From NCBI GenBank assembly GCA_965195285.1, contig CBDAFS010000056.1, positions 1 to 23,174 of the forward strand: a DNA stretch of 23,174 nt, written 5' to 3'. This document shows, in pieces, positions 316-18,922 of the stretch (positions within the stretch are counted from its first letter, which is position 1; every line of letters starts with the position of its first letter). Position numbers and translations under genes: made by a program. This DNA is from an uncultured Aminicenantes bacterium. Lineage in GTDB: Bacteria > Acidobacteriota > Aminicenantia > UBA2199. The notes under the pieces are model-generated. The model saw nothing but the letters and a program-made list of their open reading frames with translations. It did not search any database and was not told the DNA's origin.

Positions 316-459
316 AACGTGACCTGCCCCCATTTATTGTACCACTTTTAAAGTTAGTGATCCGCTATTTTTATATGTTCATTGTTTTAATATTAGCAAA
401 CGTTTGTGTATATTCAATTGTGTTTATTCCTTATTCTATCTCGCATTTATTCTTCCGAC

Positions 460-550
460 ACATGACTATTAATAAACATTCAGTATATATTTTATTAAAA
501 TAAAAGCTAAATATCAAAAAAATTGATTGTTTATACCGCTCGCTTTTCGC
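460..550 (-). repeat. Promoter + attI-like platform, copy A
   Basis: About 75/85 identical by hand alignment to 3030-3113. TTGATA (517-512), 17 nt, TAAAAT (494-489), then AATGTTTATTAATA-GTCATGT (core at 466-460, GTC instead of GTT). Confidence 0.65.
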
Positions 551-614
551 TGGATTTTTTAAAAGAATAAACAAACCAATTCTTTTTGTTGAGAATATAA
601 TATTGTTTTATGTA

Positions 615-1475
615 TTATTTTAAATATGTTAATAATTTTTCCAGATAATCAAGGAAAAAATGTCGGTTCCACAAATCTAGAGCTATGAGGTCCTGAGATT
701 TCAAAAAACGTCGGACATCTTCTTTTACAAAATCCCAGTTGAGCTGGTTGATTTTTTCCCTCATCCGGATTTCATACCACTCTTTGGTAACAGTGATCTT
801 TTCATTTTTCCAGGGCCCCATCTGGTTAATTGCATTGGATAAGAGAGTAAAATTAACGTCAAACTTCCGGGTAATAAGCCATATAAAATCATACCAGTCC
901 CTGCCTTTTGTATATTGTCGGCAAAGAAGTGCATGATTTTTTAATGCAAATGCACTGGCTGGCTCCTGGATGGTGATGGAATAAGGTAGGGGAAAGTCAA
1001 GAAATTTTGTCTCCCATACAGAACCTTCAGGTGGATTGGTATCGATTTCCAGGCGAATTTTTACTTTAGGCAATCTCCCGGTTTTGGATTCTGTATGAAA
1101 TTGAATTAACTTTCCAATGGAATCATCCTTTAAAAATACTTTTTTAACAGGTTCTTCAAGCTCGGATTTATCAAGGACTTCCAGCCGGTACCCATAAGTC
1201 TGAAATTCCAATGATAAATTTTTTATAAATGGATCCCATTTAAAATTTGAATTAGGTTTGATTAATAAAAAATCAAGATCCTCTGAAAACCTGTTCATCC
1301 CGTAAAGTACCCTTAAACAGGTTCCCCCATGGAATGCTGCATAATTAAAGAACCTGTTTCTTGACAAACTCATAAGAGCAATCTCCTGGATAATCTCCCG
1401 AATGGCCTGCTCCTCTTCTTGAATATTTTGACAATGATACTCTTTTAATCTTTCCTGAATAATTTTAATGCTCAT
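615..1475 (-). CDS. abiEii: AbiEii/AbiGii family nucleotidyltransferase toxin (type IV TA)
   Basis: FHGGTCLR and RFSEDLDF nucleotidyltransferase motifs, KGRDWYD C-terminal motif; start overlaps the end of the upstream antitoxin-like ORF. Confidence 0.9.
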   Translation of the reverse strand: MSIKIIQERLKEYHCQNIQEEEQAIREIIQEIALMSLSRNRFFNYAAFHGGTCLRVLYGMNRFSEDLDFLLIKPNSNFKWDPFIKNLSLEFQTYGYRLEVLDKSELEEPVKKVFLKDDSIGKLIQFHTESKTGRLPKVKIRLEIDTNPPEGSVWETKFLDFPLPYSITIQEPASAFALKNHALLCRQYTKGRDWYDFIWLITRKFDVNFTLLSNAINQMGPWKNEKITVTKEWYEIRMREKINQLNWDFVKEDVRRFLKSQDLIALDLWNRHFFLDYLEKLLTYLK

Positions 1476-2106
1476 TTTTCAACTCCATCTTAATCCCTTG
1501 AACAAAATTATCAATCCGCCTGTTTTTGTATTTTAAAGCTAGAATCTCAAGCTGATTGAAAGAAATTTTGCTTATTACATTTCGTTCAATTCTCAGATCA
1601 CTGAACAATGGATCAATACTGTTCCATTCTTTTTTATAAACAAAAATAAAATCCAAAAGAGCCTTTACAGGAGAAGCAATAAAAAAAGATCCATTGGATT
1701 CGCTCTTCCTATTCACATCAAAAAAAGCATCTTTTGCTGGAATCTTCAAATATGAAAACATGCCGACAGGAGTTTTAAATGTTTTTGATCGTTTCACACA
1801 TGCACTTGTGATAGTATAAACAGCCTCTGGAATCCAGCCATAATAAAACAGGGCGGATAAAAAACTGATATATGATGGTCCATATATTTTTTCCGCTACT
1901 TCAAATAAGTTCAACGGTTTTTTGCGATATTTTTCATTTAAACAATACAAACCCCTCCGGATTCGAATCAACCTTCCACTGGCCATAGCCCTTTTTACAA
2001 TCCCATAACGCTGATAATCACTGAATTCCTGCAGGATGATCTTGATTTCATTTTCTGTAATCAGTTCACCTGCTTTTTTTTCCAGAATACAATCAATAAT
2101 ATCCAT
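1465..2106 (-). CDS. abiEi: AbiEi family antitoxin / transcriptional regulator (type IV TA)
   Basis: LIRIRRGLY wHTH motif, PSYISFLSALFYYGWIPE and ASPVKALLD motifs. ATG at 2106 with GGTGA upstream is preferred over GTG at 2124. Confidence 0.85.
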   Translation of the reverse strand: MDIIDCILEKKAGELITENEIKIILQEFSDYQRYGIVKRAMASGRLIRIRRGLYCLNEKYRKKPLNLFEVAEKIYGPSYISFLSALFYYGWIPEAVYTITSACVKRSKTFKTPVGMFSYLKIPAKDAFFDVNRKSESNGSFFIASPVKALLDFIFVYKKEWNSIDPLFSDLRIERNVISKISFNQLEILALKYKNRRIDNFVQGIKMELKNEH

Positions 2107-2130
2107 ATAATCACCAACCAGCACTTAATA

Positions 2131-2171
2131 TATTGCACGAAACTGTCTAAAAACAACAGTTTTGTACAATA
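2131..2171. promoter_or_regulatory. Inverted-repeat operator of the abiE operon
   Basis: TATTGCACGAAACTGT (2131-2146), 9-nt spacer, ACAGTTTTGTACAATA (2156-2171); arms match 14/16. Lies between a candidate promoter (TTGAAA 2200-2195, N17, TAATAT) and the start codon. AbiEi proteins are known to autorepress via promoter inverted repeats. Confidence 0.7.
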
Positions 2172-2364
2172 ATATTACTATAATAAAAAAAATTTTTCAA
2201 GCCCACTGGCGAAAATTTCCCCAACACATAAAAGGAACACGGGAGGAGGAGAATTGAGTTACAAACCCGACAGCTATTAGGACAATAGCGACTATCCCTA
2301 AAGTGGTTGCACTGATAAAACTGTTCCTTTCAGGTTGATTTATTATGCAGTATTTTTTGAAATG

Positions 2365-2437
2365 CTATAACGGCCAAACTCACCTGCCGCTATGGAACGC
2401 CAGCGGAATTGTGGTCAGGTGCAGCGTCTTGTTAACC
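2365..2437 (-). mobile_element. Integron attC recombination site (73 bp)
   Basis: Minus strand: GGTTAAC (R'', contains stop codon of the upstream ORF)-AAGAC-GCTGCACCTGACCAC...GCGGCAGGTGAGT-TTGGCC-GTTATAG (R'). Shows 5/6-nt spacers, L''/L' pairing with two extrahelical bases, and a variable central region. Confidence 0.85.
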
Positions 2438-2980
2438 GTTCTCATCTTTCCCTTGCTTTTTAAGCAATTCCTCAATCCGAACAAAGAACTCATTTCGAAT
2501 CTTCTCTATATGCAATGCTTCCCTGTAATCAAGTATTGCCTTGTCCTTACGCTTAAACCTGTCCGGTTCTACTTGCAACGCATAAGAATTGACCTGTCTT
2601 TTCCAGAACCACTCTGCACAACAAAACTGGACGTTTTCCGGATCAATGGCCGGAATTACTTTTAAAACCTCAAACAATCCTCTTCCCGAAGCACTGTTTT
2701 CAACGCAGAAGGCAATGTAGGCGATCCGGTACTCCACTTTGGCGATTGTATCTTTAACCGGCAGGGGCTCAAGGTTATGAAGATCTTTCTGGCCGTTGTA
2801 AACAAAGTGTCCATGGCAGCTTTGCAGAGTGAAACAACAAGGCAATTTGTTAAAACCGTTGATGATCTTAATAATGGGTACATCAATCATATCATCGGTG
2901 AGACCGCACAGGCTTTTCTGCTTTTGAACTTGATAATACGGATTTTCCGCTAATTCTTTTAGTTCAGTGAAGGTTTCCAA
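2432..2980 (-). CDS. Hypothetical gene-cassette protein with TYW3-like N-terminal motif
   Basis: 182 aa, TTG start; bounded by GTTAGGC (3030-3024) and the attC. IDVPIIKIINGFNKLPCCFTLQSCHGH resembles the D.PI..L...IN......T.SSC.G motif of TYW3-type proteins. Confidence 0.7.
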   Translation of the reverse strand: METFTELKELAENPYYQVQKQKSLCGLTDDMIDVPIIKIINGFNKLPCCFTLQSCHGHFVYNGQKDLHNLEPLPVKDTIAKVEYRIAYIAFCVENSASGRGLFEVLKVIPAIDPENVQFCCAEWFWKRQVNSYALQVEPDRFKRKDKAILDYREALHIEKIRNEFFVRIEELLKKQGKDENG

Positions 2981-3023
2981 CTTTGACAGCCCTGCCCATA
3001 CAGAGATAAATTACGTTATCTTC

Positions 3024-3113
3024 GCCTAACTATTATCAAACATCAGTTTATATTTTATTAAAATAAAGAGTAAATATCAAATAAATTGATTATTTATACC
3101 GCTCGTTTTTCGC
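3024..3113 (-). promoter_or_regulatory. Promoter + attI-like platform, copy B
   Basis: TTGATA (3080-3075), 17 nt, TAAAAT (3057-3052), then GATGTTTGATAATA-GTTAGGC (perfect GTTRRRY at 3030-3024), directly upstream of an attC-terminated cassette. Confidence 0.7.
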
Positions 3114-3588
3114 CTGGGAAGTTTGTTTTACCAAATCGATCATAGGCAAAGGGCGACAGATCAAAATCTGTCTTTCCTTCCAATATGAGCTCGCTCAAAA
3201 CTTGCCCCACTACCGGTCCATCCCCTTATCATTTTGGAATCAGCCATGACCGGAGCCCGTTGAACCAGTGCCTCCACCACCTTAATCATGAAGGCCTGAT
3301 CAACCTGAAGATTAAAGCTGGATGGTTCTTCCAGATCACTCATTCCGGTCAGAATCATCGAATTCTCGCCCCGGAAATAATGACGCATGTCCATATCAAT
3401 GACCATTGGTACTGGCCGGGGAATGTCTTTGGTACAGGTGATGACAAAAACCTGGCGGCGATAGGGCAGAACCGGGAGGTCAAGCCCAATCATTCGGGCC
3501 ACTTTTTGGCCAGGTTATAGGCAACCGAAGTACCCAGTATTCCTCCGCCAATAATGATTATTTCAGCAATACTATTCCAGTTTTTCAC
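3094..3588 (-). pseudogene. FAD-dependent oxidoreductase (DAO/sarcosine oxidase beta-like), two internal deletions
   Basis: Three segments joined out of frame: N-terminus MKNWNSIAEIIIIGGGILGTSVAYNLAKK (GTG 3588, GxGxxG), middle VARMIGLDLPVLPYRRQVF...IRGWTG, and C-terminus PVVGQVLSELILEGKTDFDLSPFAYDRFGKTNFPGEKRAV* (stop 3094). About 165 codons in total versus roughly 380 typical. Confidence 0.85.
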
Positions 3589-4982
3589 TTTCTCTTCCAA
3601 ATATAATAGACCGGAATCCCGATAATTGTCAATCCAATACCTGCAAGTGATTCCACTGGCTTTTCAATCAATGTATTAAAAAGAATCCCACTGGAGGCTA
3701 AAATGAAGATAATGGGTACAACCGGATATCCCCAGGTTTTGTACGGCCTGGAAAGGTTGGGATATTTTCCTCTCAATTTAAAAACAGAGGCGGCGGCAGC
3801 AATCCAAAAAACAATAGAGATAAACATGGCAAAGGTAATAATCTGTTCAAATGATCCGCTGAGTACCAAAACACAAGACCAGAGAGCCTGTATGAATATG
3901 GCGAATCCAGGTGTTTTGAAACGCGGGTGAATCCTGGCAGCCCGACTAAAAAAGATTCCGTCCCTGGCCATGGCATAATAAACCCGGGGACCGGTTAAAA
4001 TTGAACCGTTGAGTGATCCGAAAGTGGAGAGGACCACGGCAATGGCAACAATCACCCCCCAGGAACCTCCAAAAAGAGCGGTTGCGGATTTTTCGGCAAC
4101 TCTGATTACTCCGGTAATTTTCTCAATGGGAAGACTGTACAGATAAATATAATTGACCAAAACATAGAGTGAGGTGACACCAATGGTTCCCAAGAAGAGG
4201 GCGCGAGGGATATTGTATGCTGGTTTTTTTATTTCTCCGGCAACAAAATTGACATTATTCCACCCGTCAAAAGCCCAGGTAACGGCAATCAAAGCCAGGC
4301 CAAAACCGACCATCAATTGACTCAAATCCAGGCCAGCCGGATTCAACTCGAAAGAGACAGAATGGCCCCGGCCAAAAAGAAAACCCATTAAAACAAAACC
4401 AACCAGAGTGGCAATTTTGATAACCGTTATGATGTTTTGAATGGATTTTCCAAAAATTAGCCCCAAATAATTAGCAACCGACAAAAAGACAATGACCAGA
4501 ACCGCTACCAGCTGAGCCATGGAAAACGAATAAGAAAATGATTGACCCATAGCCCTAAGATTAATTGCAAAGCAACTATTTTCTGTGGATAAAACCGGAA
4601 TCAGATAGCCAAAATACTCGGCAAAGGCAATAGCCAGAGCAGCAATCCCGCCGGTCATATAAACCAGAAAAGTAATCCAGCCGTACAGAAATCCCACCAG
4701 TGGCCCATACGCCTCTTTCAGATAAACGTATTGGCCCCCGGCTCTGGGCATGGATGCCCCCAGTTCAGCATAAGTAAGGGCACCGGCCAGGGTTAAAACG
4801 CCACCGATAAACCAGGCCAGAAGAATCAGCCCCGGAGACGGAATGGCTTTGGCCATTATTCCGGTGGTGAGAAATATACCGGATCCAATAATAATGCCCA
4901 TCATAACCATGATGGAATCAAATAGATTAAGCTGCCGGTTTAAACCGAATCCGGAATCAGGCAAACTATTGGGTTTTTGCAT
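3585..4982 (-). CDS. APC family amino acid permease
   Basis: IIGSGIF, YAELG...P.AGG.Y.YL, FDGW...AGEIK.P..N.PRA and RPYKTWGYP motifs; about 12 hydrophobic segments. Confidence 0.93.
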   Translation of the reverse strand: MQKPNSLPDSGFGLNRQLNLFDSIMVMMGIIIGSGIFLTTGIMAKAIPSPGLILLAWFIGGVLTLAGALTYAELGASMPRAGGQYVYLKEAYGPLVGFLYGWITFLVYMTGGIAALAIAFAEYFGYLIPVLSTENSCFAINLRAMGQSFSYSFSMAQLVAVLVIVFLSVANYLGLIFGKSIQNIITVIKIATLVGFVLMGFLFGRGHSVSFELNPAGLDLSQLMVGFGLALIAVTWAFDGWNNVNFVAGEIKKPAYNIPRALFLGTIGVTSLYVLVNYIYLYSLPIEKITGVIRVAEKSATALFGGSWGVIVAIAVVLSTFGSLNGSILTGPRVYYAMARDGIFFSRAARIHPRFKTPGFAIFIQALWSCVLVLSGSFEQIITFAMFISIVFWIAAAASVFKLRGKYPNLSRPYKTWGYPVVPIIFILASSGILFNTLIEKPVESLAGIGLTIIGIPVYYIWKRK

Positions 4983-5164
4983 TCGTTGAATCCCGGATTA
5001 TAAACCCAGGTATGGATAAATAATGATCGTCCATTAGATTTATATCAGTCAGCATTCCTATAACATACAACCAATAGTAAGTCAAAGTTGTTCGTTTTCA
5101 ATACGATTGTCTATATATGATAATAGGTTACTCATATTTATTTGATAATAATATTATTAGATTG

Positions 5165-5193
5165 TTGACATAACTCAATTTTTATACTATATT
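5165..5193 (+). promoter_or_regulatory. sigma70-type promoter of hsp20
   Basis: TTGACA (5165-5170), 17 nt, TATATT (5188-5193); AAGGAGG RBS before ATG 5233. Confidence 0.55.
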
Positions 5194-5232
5194 GTTAATG
5201 TAAAACGAAAAAAATAAACAAGGAGGTTTAAA

Positions 5233-5679
5233 ATGAATTTAGTAAGATGGAGTCCTTTCAGGGACTTTACTGATCTGCAAGAGCGATTCAATCAACTCTT
5301 GAAAACTGACATGTGGAAAGAGAATGATTCCAACGATTTCGCCATGAACTCATGGTCGCCTTCAACAGATATCTATAAAACCAAGGATGACTACGTATTT
5401 AAACTTGAGATTCCGGGAATGAATAAGGATGATATCCAGATCGAATTCAATAACGATACCCTGACCATAAAGGGCGACAGAAAAGAGGAAAAAGAAATCA
5501 ATAAGGAAGACTATCACAGAACTGAAAGATGTTGCGGATCTTTCTCACGTTCATTCAATTTACCGAAAAATGTTGATGAAAAAAATATCGATGCATCCAT
5601 GAAGGATGGAATTCTGGAACTTCGTATTCCCAAAAAAGAAGAAGCCAAAATCAAAGCAATTCCAATTAAAATCAAATAA
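5233..5679 (+). CDS. Hsp20/alpha-crystallin small heat shock protein
   Basis: WSPSTDIY...EIPGM.K.DI, ER..GSFSRSF.LP and A.MKDGILEL.IPK motifs. Confidence 0.95.
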   Translation: MNLVRWSPFRDFTDLQERFNQLLKTDMWKENDSNDFAMNSWSPSTDIYKTKDDYVFKLEIPGMNKDDIQIEFNNDTLTIKGDRKEEKEINKEDYHRTERCCGSFSRSFNLPKNVDEKNIDASMKDGILELRIPKKEEAKIKAIPIKIK

Positions 5680-5692
5680 AAGGTTCTTGCAG

Positions 5693-5732
5693 AAAAAAAA
5701 AGGGCAGCCTGTTTTCAGGCTGCCCTTTTTTT
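5693..5732. terminator. Bidirectional intrinsic terminator
   Basis: A-run, GGGCAGCCTG-TTTT-CAGGCTGCCC perfect 10-bp stem, T-run; lies between convergent hsp20 and fumarase beta genes. Confidence 0.92.
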
Positions 5733-5755
5733 ATCCGATAATTTTTAAGCTTATA

Positions 5756-6337
5756 TTATAGTGATAAAATATCTTTGGCAATCTGAGTGGACTTTTCTAA
5801 AATTTCCTTATGCAGGCTTCCACCATGGGAATCCATGGTGACCACCAGAGGAAAATCCTCTACTTCGATCACCCAAAATGCTTCCGGAGTTCCAAATTCT
5901 TCCAATTTATAAACTGTTTTTACATTTTTTACCGCAAAGGCAATCAGGGTTCCGGCCCCGCCAATCGCATGAAAATATACGGCCCCGCACTTTTTCAGAC
6001 CATCAGCTGTTTTAGCCCCCATTCCCCCTTTACCGATCACCCCTCGAACACCGTATTCACTGATCACATCTGCCTGATAGGGTTCCTCCCGGATGGATGT
6101 GGTAGGGCCTGCCGACACGAAACTCCATTTTCCACTGTCATCCTTTTTTACTACAGGGCCGCAGTGGTAGATAACCGACTCTTTCAAATCGTCGCGGATA
6201 AAATCCGGTTTCTCATCCACCATCAATTTATGGGCCTGGTCTCGGGCGGTAACAATAACACCGGATAACAGAACTTCGTCACCGACTTTTAATTTTCTAA
6301 TATCATCTTCTGAAATCGGAGTTTTAAGCTTAATCAT
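5756..6337 (-). CDS. Class I fumarate hydratase / tartrate dehydratase, beta (C-terminal) subunit
   Basis: TARDQAH, IYHCGP, AGPTTS.R, IGKGG and EVEDFP..V..D..G motifs. Confidence 0.93.
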   Translation of the reverse strand: MIKLKTPISEDDIRKLKVGDEVLLSGVIVTARDQAHKLMVDEKPDFIRDDLKESVIYHCGPVVKKDDSGKWSFVSAGPTTSIREEPYQADVISEYGVRGVIGKGGMGAKTADGLKKCGAVYFHAIGGAGTLIAFAVKNVKTVYKLEEFGTPEAFWVIEVEDFPLVVTMDSHGGSLHKEILEKSTQIAKDILSL

Positions 6338-7196
6338 AAGTCACCTCATCGTTTATTATGGTCATGGATTTTCTTCTGAAAGCCCAGCAGGTATATGAAA
6401 CTGAGACAAAATAGGAAGCGGGATGTCGATGCTGGGTGGCAGCAAACACATCCAAAACAGTGGTTTTCCCCCCAAATCCCATGGGTCCGATTCCCAGTTT
6501 ATTTAACTCTTTATAAAGATTGATCTCCAAATCCGACAATTCCGGTTGAGTATTCCGCTGACCGATTTTTCTGAAAAACTGCTGCTTGGAAAGGGCATAT
6601 GACGTGACACGATCCCCCCCGATTCCCACTCCGATGACGCCGGGTGCACAACCCAGTCCCTGGGCTTTTAGGACTGCATCAATAATCAAATTCCGGACCC
6701 CCTGCAAGTCCCTTCCCGCTTTCAACTCGGCATTGGGAAGCTTGTATTGGGTGCCCACATTCTCGCTTCCCCCGCCCTTCAACATCAAACGAATACGAAC
6801 TTCATCTTTATCCCATTGATGAAACTGGAGGTAGGGGGCATTCATTCCGATGTTGTTGCCGGAATTTTTTCCACTAATAGAGTCCACAGCATTTGGTCTT
6901 AAATACTGCAGGTTTGTGGCTTCAACAGCAGACCAATTTACTGCTTCGCGATAGGTTTTTTCCGAAAATCCTTCGGGGAAATCAATATAAACAACCAGAG
7001 ATCCGGTATCCTGGCAAATTGGGGTACTGTTTTCTCTGGCTAACCGAACATTTTCCAAAATGGTGTTAAACACACTCTTGGCCGGGGAACCCTCATCTTC
7101 CCTTTGGAAAGCATCTTCCAGTGCTTTTCCCACATCCGGGGAAAGATCGGTGGCTGCCCTGCGAATCAACTCAAGAATAGCACTTTTCAATTCCAT
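6330..7196 (-). CDS. Class I fumarate hydratase / tartrate dehydratase, alpha (Fe-S) subunit
   Basis: PICQDTG, KGGGSEN, GCAPG and LGIGPMGFGGKTT motifs plus C-terminal CWA; overlaps the beta subunit gene. Confidence 0.93.
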   Translation of the reverse strand: MELKSAILELIRRAATDLSPDVGKALEDAFQREDEGSPAKSVFNTILENVRLARENSTPICQDTGSLVVYIDFPEGFSEKTYREAVNWSAVEATNLQYLRPNAVDSISGKNSGNNIGMNAPYLQFHQWDKDEVRIRLMLKGGGSENVGTQYKLPNAELKAGRDLQGVRNLIIDAVLKAQGLGCAPGVIGVGIGGDRVTSYALSKQQFFRKIGQRNTQPELSDLEINLYKELNKLGIGPMGFGGKTTVLDVFAATQHRHPASYFVSVSYTCWAFRRKSMTIINDEVTYD

Positions 7197-7299
7197 TGGT
7201 TCATCTCCTAAAATTTAGTATTTCATTATACAAAAAAACAAAAGCCCAAACAACAGAATATGAAGAAATAATATACTTTAGCAAAACTGGGGCTGATCT

Positions 7300-9477: not shown

Positions 9478-9479
9478 GA

Positions 9480-9869
9480 TTACTCCTCCTCCACAATTTC
9501 CAAGGCTTTTTCCGGGCATTCATCTGCACAGGATCCGCAGGCAATACACTTAAAAGGAACGATTAATCCGTGATAGCGTCTCATGCTATCGGTTGGACAA
9601 ATCGACACGCAAGCATAACAGCCGATACACAGGTTCTTGTTAAGCATAACCACTCCTTTTTTATTGATGGTTAAAGCCATGGTGGGACATTCTGCCACAC
9701 AGGTCCCGCATTGGTTACACACATTCATATCAAAAGCTTCATTTAGAGCGGTAATTTTAATGCAGGAAAGTTCAGGATTGTCTTCTTTGAAATAAAGCTT
9801 GGAGCAAACACTTATGCATATATTGCATCCATTACACCGTTCCGGATAGGTTTTTAAATATTTCTTCAT
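9480..9869 (-). CDS. 4Fe-4S dicluster electron-transfer subunit (AOR partner)
   Basis: Four CxxCxxCxxxC-type clusters; likely start ATG 9869 (MKKYLK) with AGGAGG upstream. Confidence 0.9.
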   Translation of the reverse strand: MKKYLKTYPERCNGCNICISVCSKLYFKEDNPELSCIKITALNEAFDMNVCNQCGTCVAECPTMALTINKKGVVMLNKNLCIGCYACVSICPTDSMRRYHGLIVPFKCIACGSCADECPEKALEIVEEE

Positions 9870-9988
9870 GATAAAATCTACCAACCTCCTGTTGTCATTT
9901 AAAGAATTCATTATACCATTTACCGGCATTTAAGCAAAACAAAATTGATGGTATTACCGTCGACATGTTATAATGTTGTTATTACAAA

Positions 9989-10192
9989 ATGATCATCACC
10001 TTGAACAATAGAAAAACCACCTTTGAGGCTGAAATCCTTACTGTCCGTGAGTTGTTTACCCTGATGAAATACAACTTTCCCATGATCGTGGTCAAAATAA
10101 ATGGAATTTTGATTAAAAAGGATCAGTATAACCAAACCACTATAAAGGATGGGGACAGGGTAGAAGCCATTCATCTGATCAGCGGCGGTTAA
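9989..10192 (+). CDS. ThiS/MoaD family sulfur carrier protein
   Basis: 67 aa ubiquitin-like protein ending DGDRVEAIHLISGG; divergent from the AOR operon; extended -10 TGTTATAAT at 9966-9974. Confidence 0.88.
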   Translation: MIITLNNRKTTFEAEILTVRELFTLMKYNFPMIVVKINGILIKKDQYNQTTIKDGDRVEAIHLISGG

Positions 10193-10231
10193 ACCGTTAT
10201 ATATTGTGGGATTGGAAAAAGGAGTTTATAA

Positions 10232-11419
10232 ATGATATTGAAAAAAGGTTTCTTGATAATTTTTTTTACATTCATATTCCTGACCTTCAGTTTTTACGGC
10301 CTAGCAAAAACCAAGGCTGTCACCAATATTATTTTCATGGTACCGGATGGTTTGGCCATATCCAATGTGACAGCGGCCCGTGTTTATGCTTTTGGTACCG
10401 ATAAACAGAGACTTTACCTTGAAACCCTGGACCAGATCGGCTACCAGAGTACCCATTCATTAAATAGCATGGTCACCGATTCGGCTGCCGCGGCCTCGGC
10501 CTGGGCCTGTGGAGAAAAATTTAATAACGGAGAAATTTCTTTCCACTGCAAAACCAGAACTTCACCCAGAACCATTCTGGAACTGGCCCGGGAAATGGGA
10601 AAAAAATCAGGACTGGTCGCCACATCATCCATTACCCATGCAACACCGGCTGCATTTGGTGCCCATGTCGGTAACCGAAACTGTGAAAACGAGATCGCCC
10701 GGCAATATATTGTCAAAAACGGAATAGACATTCTATTGGGCGCAGGAAAGGGTATATTTCAGTCATCCGAAATGGGAGCGGATCCCTGTGGCACCTATGG
10801 AGACTTTATAGAATTGGCCAAAGAAAGAGACTATACAATAGTGAATACCCGAGAAGAGATGTTCCGATCTCATAAAACAGCAAAAAAATTACTGGGATTG
10901 TTTCGGCATGTTTCACTTACCCCGGCCCATCGAAGATCCGAGGTAAAAAACTCACAGGATGAACCCCGCCTGGCTGAGATGACCCGGGTTGCACTTCAAT
11001 TTTTGGAAACCCATCAAAAAGGTTTCTTTTTACTGGTTGAAGGATCCCAGATCGATTGGGCCAACCATGCCAATAATTTGGAATACCAGATCAGTGAAAC
11101 CCTTGAATTCGACCAGGCAGTCAAGGTTGTCCTGGACTGGGTAAATCAGGACAGGAAGCGAAAAAAAGGTACACTGATTGTTATTGTTTCCGATCATGAC
11201 TGTGGAGGCTTCGCCATCAAGGGTCCCTGGGGGGAAACATTGACCCGGCCCGGACAGTATGTCGAAGCAGGATGGATCTGGGGAAGTCATACCGGTGAAG
11301 ATACCATGATCTGGAGCCAGGGCCCATATTCAAATCATCTGGGAAAAGCCATTGACAATACCGATATTTTCCACATTATGAAAGCGGCGCTCTACGGTAA
11401 AGAATATCAAAAGCAATAA
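10232..11419 (+). CDS. phoA: Alkaline phosphatase, secreted
   Basis: Signal peptide; MVPDG, VTDSAAAASA (catalytic Ser), THATPA, VEGSQIDWANH, SDH and HTGED metal-ligand motifs. Confidence 0.92.
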   Translation: MILKKGFLIIFFTFIFLTFSFYGLAKTKAVTNIIFMVPDGLAISNVTAARVYAFGTDKQRLYLETLDQIGYQSTHSLNSMVTDSAAAASAWACGEKFNNGEISFHCKTRTSPRTILELAREMGKKSGLVATSSITHATPAAFGAHVGNRNCENEIARQYIVKNGIDILLGAGKGIFQSSEMGADPCGTYGDFIELAKERDYTIVNTREEMFRSHKTAKKLLGLFRHVSLTPAHRRSEVKNSQDEPRLAEMTRVALQFLETHQKGFFLLVEGSQIDWANHANNLEYQISETLEFDQAVKVVLDWVNQDRKRKKGTLIVIVSDHDCGGFAIKGPWGETLTRPGQYVEAGWIWGSHTGEDTMIWSQGPYSNHLGKAIDNTDIFHIMKAALYGKEYQKQ

Positions 11420-11449
11420 TCAAACCCGGATTTTCACCTCGGTTTTTTA

Positions 11450-11478
11450 TTGACAGGTCGTTTCTGATAATATATAAT
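11450..11478 (+). promoter_or_regulatory. Consensus sigma70 promoter of the fabF operon
   Basis: TTGACA (11450-11455), 17 nt, TATAAT (11473-11478). Confidence 0.8.
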
Positions 11479-11556
11479 TTATTCTCGATTAGAATTATAT
11501 ATTAATCGACACATAAAACAATTCTTCCTAAAGTATGAATGAAATAATCATAAATC

Positions 11557-12807
11557 ATGAAAGAGCATAGGGTTGTTATAACCGGATTGGGCGCAGTAAC
11601 CCCTATAGGAACAGGCATCGATAATTTCTTTAATGAAATGAATTCCGGGAGTAATGGCATATCCAAAATCACCAGTTTCGATCCTACTGATTTCCCCTCC
11701 CATATGGCGGCAGAAGTAAAAGATTTTAATCCGGATGCATTTATCGAATCAAAATTATCCAAACGCATGGACCGCTTCACCCACTTTGGTGTGGCTTCAG
11801 CAGATATGGCATTTAAAGATGCAGGCCTCGTCAATTCCGGATTTGATGGAAAAAGGGCCGGAGTTATCATCGGTTCCGGAATCGGAGGCTCCGACACCAT
11901 TGGGAATGGTTATTCCCTGCTTAATAAGAATGGACCCAAATCCCTGAGTCCTTTCTTCGTATCGAAGTTGCTTATCAATATGGCGGCCTGCATGGTCTCT
12001 ATCATATATGGCCTGAAAGGCCCGCTTTCTGCTCCGTCTGTTGCCTGTTCAACCGGTGCAAATGCCATCGGAGATGCATTTCGAATCATTCAGAGGGGAG
12101 ATGCCGATATCATGCTGGCAGGCGGTTCGGAAGCCAGTATTACCCCTCTGGCTTATGCCGGCTTTTGTGCAACCCGCTCCATGTCCAGGAGAAATGATTT
12201 TCCCGAAAAAGCCAGCCGGCCATTTGACAAGAACCGGGATGGTTTTATCATGGGAGAAGGTTCCGGCATCGTGGTTCTGGAGGAACTCGAGCATGCCCTA
12301 AAGCGCAATGCCCGAATTTATGCCGAACTCGCCGGTTATGGAAATACTGCTGACGCTTATCATTTTACCGCTCCCGATCCTTCCGGTGATGGTATGGTCA
12401 GGGTCATGAAACAAGCCATCCGGGATGCCGGTATTGACGTGCATCAAGTAGACTATATCAATGCCCACGGTACCTCAACCGTATTAAACGACAAAATCGA
12501 AAATACAGCTATTTTAAAACTCTTTGGCCAGTACGCAACAAACCTGAAGATCAGTTCAATAAAATCAATGATCGGACATCTCCTGGCAGCCGCAGGTGCC
12601 GTTGAATTTGTGTCAACCGTTCTGAGTATCCATACGGGGATATTGCCCCCGACCATTAATCATGAGGAACCGGACCCGGAATGTTCCCTGAATATCATTA
12701 CTGAAAGTACCGATGCCGGTAATCTTGAAATTGCCATCAGTAATTCCTTTGGATTTGGCGGGGGAAACGCCTGTCTGGTTGTAAATAAATATCGAGGTAA
12801 AACATGA
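11557..12807 (+). CDS. fabF: Beta-ketoacyl-ACP synthase II
   Basis: RVVITGLG, ACSTG (Cys), NAHGTST and KSMIGH (His-His), SNSFGFGG. Confidence 0.95.
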   Translation: MKEHRVVITGLGAVTPIGTGIDNFFNEMNSGSNGISKITSFDPTDFPSHMAAEVKDFNPDAFIESKLSKRMDRFTHFGVASADMAFKDAGLVNSGFDGKRAGVIIGSGIGGSDTIGNGYSLLNKNGPKSLSPFFVSKLLINMAACMVSIIYGLKGPLSAPSVACSTGANAIGDAFRIIQRGDADIMLAGGSEASITPLAYAGFCATRSMSRRNDFPEKASRPFDKNRDGFIMGEGSGIVVLEELEHALKRNARIYAELAGYGNTADAYHFTAPDPSGDGMVRVMKQAIRDAGIDVHQVDYINAHGTSTVLNDKIENTAILKLFGQYATNLKISSIKSMIGHLLAAAGAVEFVSTVLSIHTGILPPTINHEEPDPECSLNIITESTDAGNLEIAISNSFGFGGGNACLVVNKYRGKT

Positions 12808-13871
12808 AAATACCAAAACTTAAAATTGGAAACTTGACTGCTGAGATACCGATTGTTCAGGGCGGAATGGGCGTCCGGGTTTCACTCGCCTCCCTGGCTT
12901 CTTCAGTGGCCAATCAGGGCGGAATCGGAACCATTGCCAGCGTAGGCCTGGGAGATGCCGAAAAAGCAAAACAGGATTTTGAAAAACAATGCCGGGAAGC
13001 ACTGGAAGAAGAAATTTTCAAGGCACAAAGCATGACAGACGGACATCTGGCAGTCAATGTCATGGGCGTACTCAGTAATTCGGAGGATCTGGTAAAAGCC
13101 TCAGTGAGAGCAGGAATCAAGATCATCGTGTTTGGTGCCGGTCTACCCGGAAAACTTCCTGAAACAGTGGATGACGATTCCGTAAATCTTGTTCTTATTG
13201 TCAGTTCTGCCCGGGCTGCCTCATTAATTCTGAGGGTCTGGGATAAACGTTACCAGAAAATCCCTGATGCATTTATCCTCGAAGGTCCGCTGGCAGGCGG
13301 ACATCTCGGTTTTTCAGAAGATCAGCTCAGGGAACCGGACAAATATTCTCTGGATATTCTGCTTCCTCAAGTACTCGAAACCATAAAAGAATACGAAGAT
13401 AAATCCGGAAAAAAGATCCCCGTTATTACCGCCGGCGGTATATTCACCGGCAAAGACATCGCCCGCATGTTGAACATGGGTGCTTCCGGTGTTCAAATGG
13501 CCACGAGATTCGTTTGCACCCCGGAATGTGGTGTATCCCCGGAATTCAAACAGGCCTATCTTGATGCCGGAGAAGAGGATACTGTTATCATCAAAAGCCC
13601 GGCCGGATTACCCGGGCGGGCCATCTACAACAAATTTCTAAAAGATCTCGAAATCAAGGGAAAACTGAAGATCAAATGCCCCTGGCGTTGCCTCTCAACT
13701 TGCAAAATCGAAGTGGCCAGATACTGTATTGCCGATGCTCTTTTAAATTCTTATTTCGGGAATGTTGATCAGGGTCTGATCTTTGCCGGAAAAAACGCCT
13801 ATCGGGTCAATAAAATCCAACCCGTAAAAGAAATCATTGATGAACTCATGACAGAACTTGAATCGGCATAA
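12804..13871 (+). CDS. Nitronate monooxygenase-family flavoprotein, FabX/FabK-like, with Cys cluster
   Basis: PIVQGGMG, EGPLAGGHLG, AGGI and GVQMATRF motifs; C-terminal CPWRCLSTC...YCIADAL; ATGA overlap with fabF. Confidence 0.85.
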   Translation: MKIPKLKIGNLTAEIPIVQGGMGVRVSLASLASSVANQGGIGTIASVGLGDAEKAKQDFEKQCREALEEEIFKAQSMTDGHLAVNVMGVLSNSEDLVKASVRAGIKIIVFGAGLPGKLPETVDDDSVNLVLIVSSARAASLILRVWDKRYQKIPDAFILEGPLAGGHLGFSEDQLREPDKYSLDILLPQVLETIKEYEDKSGKKIPVITAGGIFTGKDIARMLNMGASGVQMATRFVCTPECGVSPEFKQAYLDAGEEDTVIIKSPAGLPGRAIYNKFLKDLEIKGKLKIKCPWRCLSTCKIEVARYCIADALLNSYFGNVDQGLIFAGKNAYRVNKIQPVKEIIDELMTELESA

Positions 13872-14020
13872 ACATACCACATACTTTTTCATTAACAGGA
13901 ATAAATCTTAAAAACAGGAACGACATCCTTTTTATTTCATATTATATGCCAATAGGGGATCAAAACGCTAAAACAAAAAAGAAGTGATTATCGTACCAAG
14001 AAGGGAAGAGGGAGTAAATT

Positions 14021-15040
14021 ATGAAAAAAATTATTTTAATATCAATTGTCCTTGTTTTTCTAAACAGTTTAATGTTTGGCGCCAAAGTAATACCTTTGCC
14101 GGATTTATTAAATCCTACATCCATAAGTTTGGATAAAGATCAAATATATATCACCGAGGGTATTCACATTTACATCTATTCAAAAAAGGATTTCAGCCTG
14201 ATAAAGAAATTTGGCAAAGAGGGAGAGGGGCCCAAAGAATTCAAACTGCTCCAGCCCGGGGGATTTCCTCTCATAATCGATGTGCAGACAGGCAATATCA
14301 TTGTGAACAGTTTGTCCAAAATCTCCTTTTTTAGCAAAAAGGGTGAATACCAGAGAGAAATGAAGGTGGCTGTGGGAGTTTTTAGCGGTGCTCATCAGCC
14401 TTTGGGGAGCGGATTTGCCGGTATCGGATTCACTCAAGAAAACAAAACCTTATATAGAACTATCCATTTAACCGATGAGAAAATGGGTAAAGTCAAAGAT
14501 GTATACCGTATTGAACATGACTTTCAACAGGGAAAAGGATTTAAAGTGGTTACCAATCCCTATGCTTTCCAGACTTATCAAAACAAATTATTCATTGGCT
14601 GGGAAAACGAGTTTGTTATTCACCTATTTAATGAGAAAGGAACAAAACTCAATACCATTAATCAAAAATACAGACGTTTTCCAGTTACGGAAAACCATAA
14701 AAAAAAGATATTGGAATACTATAAAACTGACCCCAATACCAAACTGATCTACGAAGCCCTGAAGGACCAGATGTATTTTCCCAAACTTTTTCCTGCTATT
14801 CGCAACATGATTATTGTTGATCAAAAAATTTATATCCAGACTTTCAAACAAAAAGACAACATTGCTGAATTCTATATACTTGATCTTAAAGGAAAATTAT
14901 TAAAAAAACTATTGCTCCCAGTGAAAGAACAGAACCCTATCCTAATTTATCCCTACACAATTGCAGACGGAAAAATTTACCAACTAATAGAAAACATCGA
15001 TGAGGAAGAGTGGGAACTCCACATCAATAATATAAAATAA
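14021..15040 (+). CDS. Secreted hypothetical protein, probable 6-bladed beta-propeller
   Basis: Signal peptide MKKIILISIVLVFLNSLMFG; FGKEGEGPKEF motif and repeated beta-strand blades. Confidence 0.7.
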   Translation: MKKIILISIVLVFLNSLMFGAKVIPLPDLLNPTSISLDKDQIYITEGIHIYIYSKKDFSLIKKFGKEGEGPKEFKLLQPGGFPLIIDVQTGNIIVNSLSKISFFSKKGEYQREMKVAVGVFSGAHQPLGSGFAGIGFTQENKTLYRTIHLTDEKMGKVKDVYRIEHDFQQGKGFKVVTNPYAFQTYQNKLFIGWENEFVIHLFNEKGTKLNTINQKYRRFPVTENHKKKILEYYKTDPNTKLIYEALKDQMYFPKLFPAIRNMIIVDQKIYIQTFKQKDNIAEFYILDLKGKLLKKLLLPVKEQNPILIYPYTIADGKIYQLIENIDEEEWELHINNIK

Positions 15041-15087
15041 ACTTTATTTATTCTTGATTCAGGGAAGATTAAAATTGAGTTGAAACC

Positions 15088-16080
15088 ATGCCAACACAAA
15101 ACAATATGATTTCAGATGTACGGAGTTTTATGAAAAGCAGGATTATCCTCACAGCCGCCGAGTTAGATTTGTTTACCACATTAGATCAACATTCTATTTC
15201 TGCCAAAGACCTGGCTGCAATGCTTGACCTGAATGAAAGGGCTACGACAAGAATACTCGATTGCTTGATTACTTTCGAGCTCCTTGAAAAGCAAAACAAC
15301 TGTTATCGGACTACGGATAAGGGGTCAACCCTTTCGTCCATGCACCCGCATTCGATTCTTCCTTCGTTGAAACATTCCATTAGACTCTGGAACAACTGGA
15401 ACCATCTTACTGTAGCCATAAGAGAAGGCACTAATCCGCACCTGCAGCCCTGGAGCAGTAAAACTGTATCTGACGAAGAAAGGAAAGCTTTTATCGGCTC
15501 CATGCATATTGGAGCCAGGAAACACTTGAGCAAGATAAGCGATGCATATGATTCACGTCCATTCAAAAAGTTGCTTGATATTGGTGGTGGTTCCGGTGCT
15601 TACACAATTGCTTTCCTTCAAAAAAACCCACAATTGCAAGCTATCATTTATGATTTGGAAGGTGTCATTCCCATTGCGGAAGAAAAGATCAGGGAAGTAC
15701 AACTTCAAAATCGAGTCAGTTTTGTCGCAGGAGATTATAATAGGGATGAACTTCCTGGTGGATGTGACCTCGCTCTGTTGTCAGCTGTCATACACCAGAA
15801 CAACCTTGAACAGAATCTCAGTCTTTTTCAGAAAGTATATCGTGCCCTCGAATTGGGCGGTGCGCTTTTAATCCGTGATCATGTTATGGATACGACCCGG
15901 ACAAAACCACCTATGGGGGCGATTTTTGCCCTGAATATGCTGGTCAGCACATCAGCCGGTGATACGTATACTTTCGATGAGATTAAAGATAGTCTGGAAA
16001 TGGCCGGTTTTGAAAAAGTAGAAACCTTAATGACAGGGGAAAAGATGGACTGTCTGATAGAAGCTAAAAAATTGAAGTAG
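15088..16080 (+). CDS. SAM-dependent O-methyltransferase (dimerisation domain + Methyltransf_2)
   Basis: AAELDLFT N-terminal dimerisation helix; LLDIGGGSG motif I, YDL, VAGD and LSAVIH. Confidence 0.9.
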   Translation: MPTQNNMISDVRSFMKSRIILTAAELDLFTTLDQHSISAKDLAAMLDLNERATTRILDCLITFELLEKQNNCYRTTDKGSTLSSMHPHSILPSLKHSIRLWNNWNHLTVAIREGTNPHLQPWSSKTVSDEERKAFIGSMHIGARKHLSKISDAYDSRPFKKLLDIGGGSGAYTIAFLQKNPQLQAIIYDLEGVIPIAEEKIREVQLQNRVSFVAGDYNRDELPGGCDLALLSAVIHQNNLEQNLSLFQKVYRALELGGALLIRDHVMDTTRTKPPMGAIFALNMLVSTSAGDTYTFDEIKDSLEMAGFEKVETLMTGEKMDCLIEAKKLK

Positions 16081-16230
16081 AATCTATTTCTTTTTTCTTT
16101 AGACCTGACTCCAATTGCCTTTCTGAAAATATACCGGGTTGAATAAAAATCTTGGTTATGTAAAATGTTAAGGTTAGCATTTAAGAAGGGTCTTACGATT
16201 AAGTTGATTAAAAAAAGGAGGATTTTAGAA

Positions 16231-17298
16231 ATGAACCGAAAAGCAAACAAGCATATTCTAAATCAAACCATTCCCAGAAGAAAATTCCTGAAACAGGCAA
16301 CAATCAGCACCCTGGGAATAGCAATAACCCACCCTTTATTGAACAACCGATTGTTCAGTCAGCAAATAAAGAAAAAAAGCAAAGTCATTCTGGTGCAACA
16401 TCCTCAGGTAATTGATGCCAGTGGAAAAGTCCAATATCCCATTTTAAAAGAAATGCTCACCAGGGCAATCATTGAATTTACAGAGAAAACCAATTTAAAA
16501 GAGGCCTGGAGTAAATTTATTTCTTATGGCCGACCGATTGGAATCAAACTCAACACATTGGGATTGTCCAGGATAAAAAACTCCCCATTGACTAATCACT
16601 ATTCTGCCATCACATCAATACTGGTGGATGATTTAAAACAGGCTGGAGTTGATGAGAAAGATTTAATCATCTGGGATCGTAGTGACCAGGAACTGGTAAA
16701 TGCCGGTTTAACTGTGCAGAAAAGTCCAGAGAAGGTTCGAGTCATTGGGGTTAAAGCCAGTAGAGGAAGCAATGAAACTGCAGAGGAATTCGACCCTAAA
16801 TATTATCCCATTGGGAACAAGAAAGTAAGACTCAGTCGGATATTAACCGATCAATGTAACACTCTTATCAGTATCCCTATACTCAAACACCATCAGTTGG
16901 CCGGAATTACCGGCAGCTTAAAAAGCCATTTTGGCTCCATTGACAATCCCGGGCAATTTCACTCCACCCGCTGTGTTAATCCTGGAATTCCTGAATTGAA
17001 TGCCATTCCGGTTATAAGAAAAAAACAGAAGTTGATTATTGCCGACTGTTTGCTGGGTTTATACCATGGTGGACCCTGGTGGAATCCCCGGTATGTCTGG
17101 CCTTACGGTGGAATCGTTGTGGGAACAGACCCGGTGGCTGTGGATACAATTCTTTTAAATATTATGGATGAAAAAAGAAAATCCCAGAACATGGTACCCA
17201 TTGAGCAGAGTATTCAGCAGCTGAAGCTATCAGAAAAATTGGGCCTAGGGACTTGTGACACCAATCAGATAGATTTGAAAGTCATTAAGCTGAGCTAA
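16231..17298 (+). CDS. DUF362 domain protein with Tat signal
   Basis: RRKFLK twin-arginine motif; IKLN, P.LK.H..AGITGSLK..FG and DPVAVD motifs. ATG 16231 follows GGAGG. Confidence 0.8.
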   Translation: MNRKANKHILNQTIPRRKFLKQATISTLGIAITHPLLNNRLFSQQIKKKSKVILVQHPQVIDASGKVQYPILKEMLTRAIIEFTEKTNLKEAWSKFISYGRPIGIKLNTLGLSRIKNSPLTNHYSAITSILVDDLKQAGVDEKDLIIWDRSDQELVNAGLTVQKSPEKVRVIGVKASRGSNETAEEFDPKYYPIGNKKVRLSRILTDQCNTLISIPILKHHQLAGITGSLKSHFGSIDNPGQFHSTRCVNPGIPELNAIPVIRKKQKLIIADCLLGLYHGGPWWNPRYVWPYGGIVVGTDPVAVDTILLNIMDEKRKSQNMVPIEQSIQQLKLSEKLGLGTCDTNQIDLKVIKLS

Positions 17299-17319
17299 AA
17301 TACCTGATCTTCTTCAACT

Positions 17320-18003
17320 TTAGGCGGGATAACCTACTGATTGAGCAAAGAGTACCCGCTGATGAGGCTTTAACTTAAACTCCTTGGGAGTGTTCCTTTT
17401 ATCGCAGTTGTGAAACCATGCTGCCAGACCATGGGCAGCGGCAAACAAGTAAACATTCTGGGCAATAAAACCGGTATCCGTATAATAATAGGATTTCTGC
17501 ACTTCCGGGTCCCCAATAGACCGGTCCGGTTGTCTAGGGCCTAAATCATAGCGAGTGAGGTCGGCAACGTAGAAAATATTCAGTGGAGCTTTGGCTGCAC
17601 CACGCCGGCCGGCCCTAGCCCGAAAATCCCCCTGCACTACTGGAGTGAGCTGGTGAGGAACCGCTTCGTATAAATAGATTCCCTTGGCCATGGCCACATA
17701 CAGATCTATCTCTTGGGAATTGCTGGCCGAAGGAGCTGTCCTTCCCGTTTTGCCAAAAGAGGCTCTCTCCCGATTCACACCGAAAGCCGCCCAGAGAAGG
17801 TTGGAGAGTACCTGGGCAGGAATTTTTCGGGTACTGATATTGCGGTTCGTCCATCTCTCCTGCAGGGCTTCCAACACAGACTTGCCGCCCTCCTTTTCAG
17901 GCTTCGGTAAAATGATAGGCTGTAATTCTTCAGAGGATCCATAAACAGTACCCGCCAGAACAGTAAGACCCGGTAATGCCTTTACAAAAGTTCTGCGATT
18001 CAT
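17320..18003 (-). CDS. Nitroreductase family (SagB/ThcOx-like) protein with Tat signal
   Basis: MNRRTFVK start at ATG 18003 after AAGGAGG; LSNLLWAA.G, RTAPSA.N and DTG.IAQNVYL.A motifs. Confidence 0.87.
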   Translation of the reverse strand: MNRRTFVKALPGLTVLAGTVYGSSEELQPIILPKPEKEGGKSVLEALQERWTNRNISTRKIPAQVLSNLLWAAFGVNRERASFGKTGRTAPSASNSQEIDLYVAMAKGIYLYEAVPHQLTPVVQGDFRARAGRRGAAKAPLNIFYVADLTRYDLGPRQPDRSIGDPEVQKSYYYTDTGFIAQNVYLFAAAHGLAAWFHNCDKRNTPKEFKLKPHQRVLFAQSVGYPA

Positions 18004-18156
18004 TTTGACCTCCTTTTTATAAATGGAATTCAAGCGCCAAAAGCACCTAAAATCATATAATACCCAAGTAAAATTATTTTTCAAGACCATTTAATAATAA
18101 TAGAATATATATGTTTTTTAAAATTTGGTTGCGTTGAAAATACTTTTTGCTCAAAA

Positions 18157-18226
18157 AATCGATTTTTTCTTGAAATTCCTTAGATAACAAAATAAAATAT
18201 GTACCGATGTTTATTAATAGTTAGAT
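18157..18226 (+). promoter_or_regulatory. Promoter + attI-like platform, copy C
   Basis: TTGAAA (18170-18175), 17 nt, TAAAAT (18193-18198), then GATGTTTATTAATA-GTTAGAT (GTTRRRY at 18220-18226). Same spacing and near-identical core-proximal sequence as copies A and B. Confidence 0.6.
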
Positions 18227-18250
18227 GCTGAAATACCAAGGAGGATTCAT

Positions 18251-18574
18251 ATGGCAATCAAACGTGTATGGCATGGTTGGGCCACGCCAGAAAACGCCGA
18301 TAAATACCAAAATCTTCTTCATAATGAAGTGTTTCTTGGAATAGAAGCCAAGAAAATACCAGGTTATCAGAGTATTGAACTGCTCCGACGGGATCTAGGC
18401 GATGAAGTTGAGTTCGTCACCATTATGACATTTGATTCATTGCAGAACGTCATCGACTTTCAGGGGGAAGACTACACACGCTGCTATGTTCCCGATGCTG
18501 CAAAATTGGTATTAAAGCGCTGGGATCAGGTATCAGCACATTATGAAACAATAGAATATAGAAAATATCGGTAA
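18251..18574 (+). CDS. Antibiotic biosynthesis monooxygenase (ABM)-like dimeric alpha/beta barrel protein
   Basis: IKRVWHGW, IPGY..IELLRR and EF.TIM.FDS...V..F.GEDY...YVP..A motifs; AAGGAGG RBS. Confidence 0.82.
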   Translation: MAIKRVWHGWATPENADKYQNLLHNEVFLGIEAKKIPGYQSIELLRRDLGDEVEFVTIMTFDSLQNVIDFQGEDYTRCYVPDAAKLVLKRWDQVSAHYETIEYRKYR

Positions 18575-18627
18575 ACAATTACTAATTAGAAAAAGAAACT
18601 CCGGCAAAGATAAAATCTTTTATCGGG

Positions 18628-18840
18628 AATTTGGGGTTGGAATCGGTAGCGGGGGAATTTTGACAGAGCGAAGCGTTAGGGTCAAAATTTGGGTGGACGC
18701 GTCAGCGTCCCTCCTTATGTGAACATTCAAGCATAACAAAATAGGCGCAATTTGGGAAACGCGAAAGCGTCCACTTTATAAACAGTTACCCAATCACCAA
18801 ATAAGTGTAATTTGGGAGGCGCACTGCGCCATCCACTGTT
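18628..18840. repeat. Degenerate ~60-bp repeat array with GC hairpins
   Basis: AATTTGGG at 18628, 18686, 18749 and 18809 (spacing 58/63/60). The last three are followed by hairpins GGACGC-GTCA-GCGTCC, ACGC-GAAA-GCGT and GGCGCA-C-TGCGCC. Confidence 0.6.
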
Positions 18841-18922
18841 TCCATATATGAGGGTTCAAATCCTACCCCAAAGTAGAATTATCAATCAAAATTGAATGGG
18901 TTTTGGTTGAAGGAAAAAAAGA

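Follow-up and report, generated by a model that had tools for sequence, protein, structure and literature searches.

What is the origin of three promoter-like sequences that lie far apart on one contig of an uncultured Aminicenantes bacterium, stand in front of different genes and end in a core of the integron type? The stretch of DNA analyzed here, hereafter the window, has a length of 23,174 nucleotides and represents the entire contig C56 of the genome G000 (3.28 Mb, 62 contigs, 94.9% complete). A textbook integron possesses one attI site beside its integrase gene intI, and only its first few cassettes are well expressed. A reading made from the letters of the window alone (the sequence-only reading) had described the three copies as compact platforms of a cassette promoter (Pc) and an attI site, served by an integrase in trans. 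The comparison with related genomes makes it somewhat probable that they are members of a family of solo modules of the Pc-attI type, at which cassettes were once inserted and which nowadays serve mostly as fixed promoters. All genomes compared are metagenome-assembled genomes, and several of the loci stop at contig ends.

A promoter-like module and its conserved edge

The proposed layout of the three copies was confirmed. The motif TTGAWA-N17-TAAAAT was found in 3 out of 3 copies, followed by a spacer of 21-22 nt ending in ATGTTT(AT/GA)TAATA, with the G of the core at positions 466 (−), 3030 (−) and 18220 (+). Copy A (461-535, minus strand) reads TTGATA-17-TAAAAT and then ...ATGTTTATTAATAG|TCATGT. 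Copy B (3024-3097, minus strand) begins directly after the stop codon of a DAO-family gene and ends in ...TTTGATAATAG|TTAGGC, and copy C (18152-18224, plus strand) reads TTGAAA-17-TAAAAT ...ATGTTTATTAATAG|TTAGAT. The nhmmer E-values are 8.8e-12, 1.2e-11 and 4.9e-12, respectively. Alignment and a repeat finder gave an identity of 90% over 71 nt for copies A and B and of 85% over 34 nt for copies B and C. A promoter consensus scan found 10 of 12 matches at each of the three copies, which describes a fit to the consensus and not a function. The heptamers of copies B and C are GTTAGGC and GTTAGAT. The heptamer of copy A, GTCATGT, lacks the G|TT core.

The number of copies had to be corrected from three to 13 in G000. 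A search with the 15-nt core, allowing up to 2 mismatches, yielded 25 matches and, together with short-word BLAST, led to 13 copies in full promoter-like context, which are spread over 9 contigs. When the motif scan was extended to the relatives, their loci added 16 further non-redundant copies, resulting in a total of 29. A profile built from the 13 copies recovered those 13 and no others at E ≤ 1e-3 in the whole genome, with an E-value of about 1e-11 to 1e-14 for each copy in 3.28 Mb. Chance origin was rejected on the basis of these E-values and of the reversed pattern, for which 0 matches were found in 41 and in 72 genomes. A 29-nt pattern with up to 3 mismatches was identified in 9 of 72 genomes of the family, distributed over 5 of 18 genera. 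It is present in all three other genomes of the same genus (G001, G002 and G003; the four genus genomes are 70-95% complete), and only this genus has it in multiple copies. The exact pattern occurs in four records of the genome collection and on one metagenome contig, on which no IntI-like open reading frame (ORF) was found.

When the 29 copies are aligned on the G, the positions from about −56 to −1 have a high information content, which peaks in the final 30 nt. It drops to a moderate level over +1 to +4 (TTAG) and is close to zero from +6 onwards. The similarity thus ends close to G|TT, as had been stated for the three copies. The G is followed by TT in 23/29 and by TTA in 20/29 copies, and the strict heptamer GTTRRRY was found in 9/29. 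The −35 and −10 columns are conserved across the family, as are the promoter spacer and the leader. In the metagenome run X2, other contigs match just the positions 18191-18223/5 and then diverge from the window.

The copies group by sub-family or locus and not by genome. Copies B and A, for example, belong together with the copy at the DAO locus of G003, and the copy C60:892 pairs with that on contig C246 of G002 at an identity of 0.94. Some sub-families share additional 5′ flank, namely about 23 nt of DAO sequence in copy A and about 30 nt in C60:892, G002 C246 and G002 C220. Across genomes the copies are 77-94% alike, compared to 66-77% for the orthologous genes of those genomes. Tandem arrangements of module, gene and module were found on C40, in the window (B...A), on G001 C29 and on G002 C220. 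Two palindromes were noticed by eye, ATCAAT-N-ATTGAT over the −35 region and TATTAATA before the G. No terminal inverted repeats or target-site duplications were seen on reading the 29 aligned copies, for which no formal test was made. The metatranscriptome run X20 contained three contigs, none of them over the module, and is uninformative either way.

Cargo, attC sites and orthologous loci

For the identification of attC sites, covariance models were built on this lineage's own sites. Model R1 was derived from the attC behind copy B and three sites near an integrase remnant. Model R2 was trained on four attC sites of relatives, and its scores for those sites are therefore inflated. Whole-genome runs score just 150 first-look candidates, and sites missed in this way were found by a search with the filters off; the whole-genome attC count is a lower bound. 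A script based on hairpins with TAAC/GTTA missed known sites and returned unrelated hairpins, so the covariance models were used instead.

The gene behind copy B had been said to end in a canonical attC, and this was verified. Cassette gene B (2432-2980, minus strand) encodes 182 amino acids (aa) without significant family and is closed by an attC at 2363-2438 (−), with R″ GGTTAAC ... R′ G|TTATAG, a score of 78.7 bits and a whole-genome E-value of 1.9e-17. With this gene, this attC and no other attC or intI in the window, the copy-B unit falls under the definition of a SALIN, a single attC cassette far from an integrase.

The expectation that modules are followed by an ORF and an attC held for 7 of the 29 copies, copy B included, but not for copy C, which has no attC behind it. 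In these seven (window B, C60:28261, G000 C2, G002 C166, C246 and C220, and G003 C121) the module is followed by one or more genes and a canonical attC, and two further copies (C60:892 and G001 C29) have weak sites. Five of the 29 copies have less than 500 nt downstream before the contig end. The three genes behind the smc-locus module C60:28261 encode a methyltransferase, a 432-aa protein without assignment and an N-formylglutamate amidohydrolase, and the attC after them scores 85.6 bits. On G000 C2 an RRM RNA-binding gene is followed by an attC of 29.1 bits (E-value 1.3e-5; model not trained on that site), which is decayed from TAAC to TAAT, and the same RRM gene on G003 C121 has a clean RYYYAAC...GTT site. 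The four attC sites of the relatives, the sequences of which were also read by eye, scored 31.5, 20.3, 20.0 and 15.9 bits with R1. The copy C60:892 lies inside an array, between an attC at 210-282 and a weak attC-like site at 2077-2203.

With about 14 known attC sites in 3.28 Mb, a rough estimate gives about 0.1 of 13 modules expected to be followed within 3.5 kb by an attC of the same strand; at least 3 of 13 were observed. The cargo of the modules is accessory or defence-type and does not form one pathway.

A 65-aa ORF behind the module on G000 C15 (L062 3938-4132) corresponds to the first 65 positions of the SMODS nucleotidyltransferase domain (E-value 1.3e-20) and appears to be a truncated CBASS-type gene. 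Away from modules and integrase, attC sites were found on G000 C13 at 575-696, 1422-1495, 19574-19646 and 21866-21925, all on the minus strand, as well as on C6 (183-255, +) and C40 (58387-58460, −). The latter two are of CALIN or SALIN type, like those on C13.

Different genes after the same G|TT had been predicted for orthologous loci and were found at two of them, the DAO locus and the smc locus. For the DAO locus, the identity between G003 and the window is 96, 95 and 89% and ends 6 nt past the G of copy B, and an unrelated, G+C-richer gene of 271 aa stands behind its module. In G002 the DAO gene has no module; a hairpin and a convergent gene were found instead. The DAO-locus copies of G000 and G003 are mutually nearest (0.92 identity), which argues that they are orthologous and not independently delivered. 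Immediately before module B, the window contains a DAO-family (FAD oxidoreductase) pseudogene (3094-3600, −), which is broken into three ORF pieces and is shorter than the G003 copy by about 540 and 107 nt. A remnant of about 23 nt of a DAO 3′ end (531-553, −) is located directly upstream of copy A and corresponds to the genuine DAO 3′ end that precedes copy B. Copy A is therefore regarded as a DNA-level duplicate of the DAO-locus junction and not as an independent site. For the smc locus, the 740-940 nt preceding the module show 77-83% identity among G000, G001 and G002, and the sequences that follow it are unrelated.

The RRM locus is syntenic in three species (G000, G002 and G003), with variable DNA flanking a conserved block of module, RRM gene and attC, from which it follows that the module-RRM unit has not moved. 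In G002 this locus has an extra unit of module, TIR-like gene and attC.

The metagenome runs that contain the window stretch are recorded as sediment and cold seep, and the window may itself derive from one of them. Parts of the window without cover in runs X5 and X6 were left out of the population comparison. Over 15500-18092, the contigs of X2 and X5, which come from two other studies, show 10 differences from the window in 2593 letters, an identity of about 99.6%. Next to this segment, a stretch of 532 nt with copy C and its gene (18093-18624, +) is replaced by 19 other letters. Short AATTTGG repeats at both ends of the difference make deletion and insertion both possible.

Integrase remnants and competing explanations

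The absence of an integrase from the window, as stated in the sequence-only reading, was borne out by the integrase search of the genome. An intact intI was defined by a TIGR02249 score above 265 bits, and 0 of the 4 genus genomes (G000 and G001-G003) exceeded this value. Capture in trans today thus lacks support, no intact IntI having been found in genome or genus. In the family as a whole, 5 of 72 genomes have an intact intI, none of them together with the module. Their attI regions differ from it; in two of them an AT-rich run before GTTAGAC bears a loose likeness to the module. The best TIGR02249 match in G000 reaches 98.3 bits and covers the model positions 254-315 only. This C-terminal fragment of 62 aa scores 101.4 bits as integron integrase versus 75.8 bits as XerD. 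Its upstream neighbour, in divergent orientation, is an array of five or more attC-ended cassettes, the first junction of which (...GTAATAG|TTAGG) equals the last ten letters of the module, weak evidence when taken alone. The smc-locus module is located 3.7 kb from fragment and array.

Whether one copy adjoins an intI could be answered in part. In G013, a genome of a different genus, module and intI remnant are divergent and about 200 nt apart, the module reading away from the remnant. The latter carries a frameshift and breaks off after about 110 codons, and just 185 nt of contig remain behind the G. The G013 fragment is assigned to the integron integrases by TIGR02249 with 76.5 bits, the best non-integron family being XerA with 34.5 bits. 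No IntI-like fragment was found near the single copy in G024, G082, G042 and G014.

Just 3′ of the IntI fragment on G000 C60, and again at the contig end, an AT-rich stretch of about 100-150 nt (...aaaatttgcaata..., then GGCGGTAGCCTATTTGAA) was observed (L009 5860-6000 and 10377-10473). A relative of it is located directly upstream of a module copy in G001 and G003. The C60 contig may break there because of this stretch, which is also a possible marker of the ancestral integron locus.

Past integrase action at the core best accounts, taken together, for the abrupt loss of similarity at G|TT, the cargo closed by attC, the change of genes at two loci with a conserved module, and the G013 copy lying where an attI would be expected. 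The module would represent the attI and cassette-promoter region of an Aminicenantes integron lineage. Each copy would combine a sigma-70-type promoter, TTGAYA-17-TAAAAT, with a double-stranded attI core about 22 nt further on (...TTATTAATAG|TTAGGY); both the promoter activity and the action of IntI at this core are deduced from sequence. At several copies, an integron integrase may once have inserted circular cassettes by recombination between their attC and the G|TT. The incoming gene would have come to lie about 15 nt behind the probable transcription start, where it could be expressed immediately. Cargo would have been exchanged at the DAO and smc loci at least. With the integrase reduced to a fragment, the modules would today act mainly as fixed promoters, and during its long absence attC sites and, in some copies, the GTT core would have decayed. 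The decayed attC of the G000 RRM cassette and the core lost in the C46 copy fit such a decay. The tandem arrangements suggest a possible route of module copying: attI x attI exchange, or cassettes that used a module as their 3′ site, would fit them.

Several observations weigh against this reading. Intact integrases are missing from the genus, and the family genomes that have one lack the module. The sole case of a neighbouring intI is a gene cut short and frameshifted at the end of a contig, where no attC can be seen. In the loci searched with filters off, the two C40 copies, those on C15, C20, C43, C46 and C53, and copy C were found to lack an attC behind them. The heptamer of copy A fails GTTRRRY, and its junction has been rearranged by the end remnant of an IS3-family insertion sequence. 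The RRM gene keeps its module in G000, G002 and G003 as it would a plain promoter. Likewise, the ADH gene (G000 C46, G001 C10) and a methyltransferase gene (G024, G082) keep theirs across species, in both cases with no attC. Module C and its gene are absent together from the near-identical X2 and X5 contigs, which indicates that pad and cargo are one unit at copy C. Of the earlier proposal, multiple Pc-attI platforms are supported by the crossover-type edge, the attC cassettes, the change of cargo and the adjacency to an intI remnant. The part left unsupported is a distributed integron in use, given the lack of an intact intI, the absence of an attC behind seven of the 13 G000 copies, C among them, the rearranged copy A and the stable module-gene pairs. 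A truly distributed integron, in which a promoter-bearing attI was copied round the chromosome to give many landing pads for one integrase in trans, is rather doubtful. If true, capture would not be confined to one platform, and each captured gene would receive first-position expression.

Alternatively, the module could be attached to its downstream gene as a portable promoter. Module and gene, with the attC where present, would then move or be lost together, and G|TT would mark the end of the leader and no crossover. The joint absence of copy C and its gene, the genes that retain their module across species, the position of C60:892 between two attC-type sites and the extra 5′ flank of some sub-families agree with this. 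We nevertheless consider it unlikely: the DAO and smc loci keep the module with its upstream flank while the gene changes, and at the DAO locus the break lies 6 nt past the G. The orthology of the DAO-locus copies in G000 and G003 and the syntenic RRM locus, where the unit has not moved, speak against a travelling unit as well. Still less probable is a host promoter or operator of a lineage-specific regulon, the leader of which (GTTAGG in AT-rich DNA) was used as a secondary target of the attG type, the G013 copy being one such use. Such a control region would account for the palindromes and for the single conserved copies before an orthologous methyltransferase gene in genus g8 and perhaps g9. 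Cassette insertion at genomic sites near promoters is known (Loot et al., bioRxiv 10.1101/2022.09.11.507474). A shared operator would not, however, need the conserved spacer and leader, nor does it explain why the copies resemble each other more across genomes than orthologous genes do, why the cargo belongs to no single pathway and why the G013 module holds exactly the attI position.

An interpretation of the module as an unusual AT-rich attC, with the copies as boundaries of ordinary cassette arrays, is highly improbable and was rejected. The module ends in GTTRRRY and is sometimes found between tandem genes (module-gene-module-gene on C40; B...A in the window), but the alignment, read by eye, has no RYYYAAC inverse core on the 5′ side and no R″/R′ pairing. 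None of the copies was matched by R1 or R2, including the searches with filters off, and the real attC sites of the genome, with about 50% G+C, are quite different.

Solo modules of the Pc-attI type, the explanation preferred here, are a variant of known integron biology, namely of SALIN/attG and delta-attI cassettes. The attI1 site of the class 1 integron has a length of 65 bp, 56 bp of which lie left of the crossover G (Gonzales Machuca et al. 2026, PMC12901181). The module is similar in being a putative double-stranded site of about 56-70 bp, conserved only left of the GTTRRRY core, with attC-ended cassettes behind it, a predicted promoter reading into them and one copy adjoining an intI remnant. 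Unlike an attI with its Pc, it occurs in 13 copies per genome on 9 contigs, none beside an intact intI; its predicted promoter lies within the module itself, and no inverted L box or DR1/DR2 pattern was recognized on reading it.

SALINs were described as single attC cassettes far from an integrase, inserted at GWT/GTT sites (attG) and expressed near a promoter, and the attG sites as unlike one another and unlike attI (Loot et al., bioRxiv 10.1101/2022.09.11.507474). The copy-B unit resembles a SALIN, and the module units in general would be counted as SALINs by current tools. Compared with attG so described, the left junctions of the modules make up a single conserved family; it matches a site found beside an intI and supplies a predicted promoter of its own. 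For delta-attI cassettes and attI1-ORF-attI1, attI-type sequence is reported to recur in arrays and to act as a cassette recombination site (PMC12901181). The tandem arrangements on C40, in the window, on G002 C220 and on G001 C29 are similar to them. The delta-attI described there, however, are short attI fragments next to intI1 in one clinical integron, whereas the modules are full-length, promoter-bearing copies across a chromosome.

No published description of dispersed attI copies was found in a literature search confined to one library. Among the papers listed by that search, no title or abstract described integrons of the Aminicenantes phylum. Putative mobile promoters, identical upstream regions before unrelated genes, were reportedly described by Matus-Garcia et al. 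in 2012. The module shares with them one promoter-like sequence before unrelated genes in one genome, but differs by its recombination core, its attC-ended cargo and a link to intI that suggests a mechanism. If a conserved, promoter-carrying attI-type module in many chromosomal copies, with cassette turnover at some of them, is real, the capture-and-express function of an integron could exist many times over in one genome, and isolated cassettes would in some cases sit at dedicated and not at random sites. The module is a concrete, testable attI candidate for an uncultivated phylum. The copies would also offer a natural series of decay after integrase loss, from attC present to attC decayed to GTT core decayed.

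Further features of the window and of related contigs

For the two downstream genes named GNAT and ABM in the sequence-only reading, no Pfam match was found at E ≤ 0.01. The gene behind copy A (1-333, minus strand) runs off the contig end, which is reached 466 nt downstream of the module; it is GNAT-like by eye only. Contig C6, which starts with the attC at 183-255, was tried as its continuation and rejected for lack of an end overlap and of an open frame. Between copy A and this gene lies the IS3-family end remnant of 63 nt (317-379, −). It covers the first ATG of the ORF at 333, so that the gene probably starts at about 315. The same IS3-family end follows a transposase C-terminus on G001 C87, the rve/IS3 type being judged by eye, and further copies of it were found on G001 C274 and G003 C85.

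An AbiEii (615-1475) and AbiEi (1465-2124) toxin-antitoxin pair (615-2124, −) is located between the attC of cassette B and copy A; no attC belongs to this pair. The region between copies B and C contains ordinary metabolic genes, which shows the copies to be truly dispersed. The gene behind copy C (18251-18574, +) encodes 107 aa and has a strong Shine-Dalgarno sequence, no Pfam match and no attC behind it.

In run X6, a contig that stems from a less closely related organism joins position 16083 directly to the tRNA-Met at 18923. This junction indicates that the DUF362 gene, the nitroreductase gene and module C with its gene form a variable island beside the tRNA (window 16084-18922). Between the copy-C gene and the tRNA-Met (18923-18999, −), hairpin units of about 60 nt are repeated three to four times in tandem at 18620-18840. 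Each starts with AATTTGGG and has a GCG...CGC stem, so that the units look like REP-type repeats. The gamma-glutamyltranspeptidase gene at 19063-20780 is split into two ORFs of 190 and 384 aa. The near-identical X2 contig has one extra T behind 19673, which points to a frameshift in the genome or an error in the assembly. Outside the window, a RAYT-like gene (N-terminus MSRPLRIEYPGAWYHVMNRG) was found divergent from the C46 module, and many short multi-copy repeats are located nearby in the relatives.

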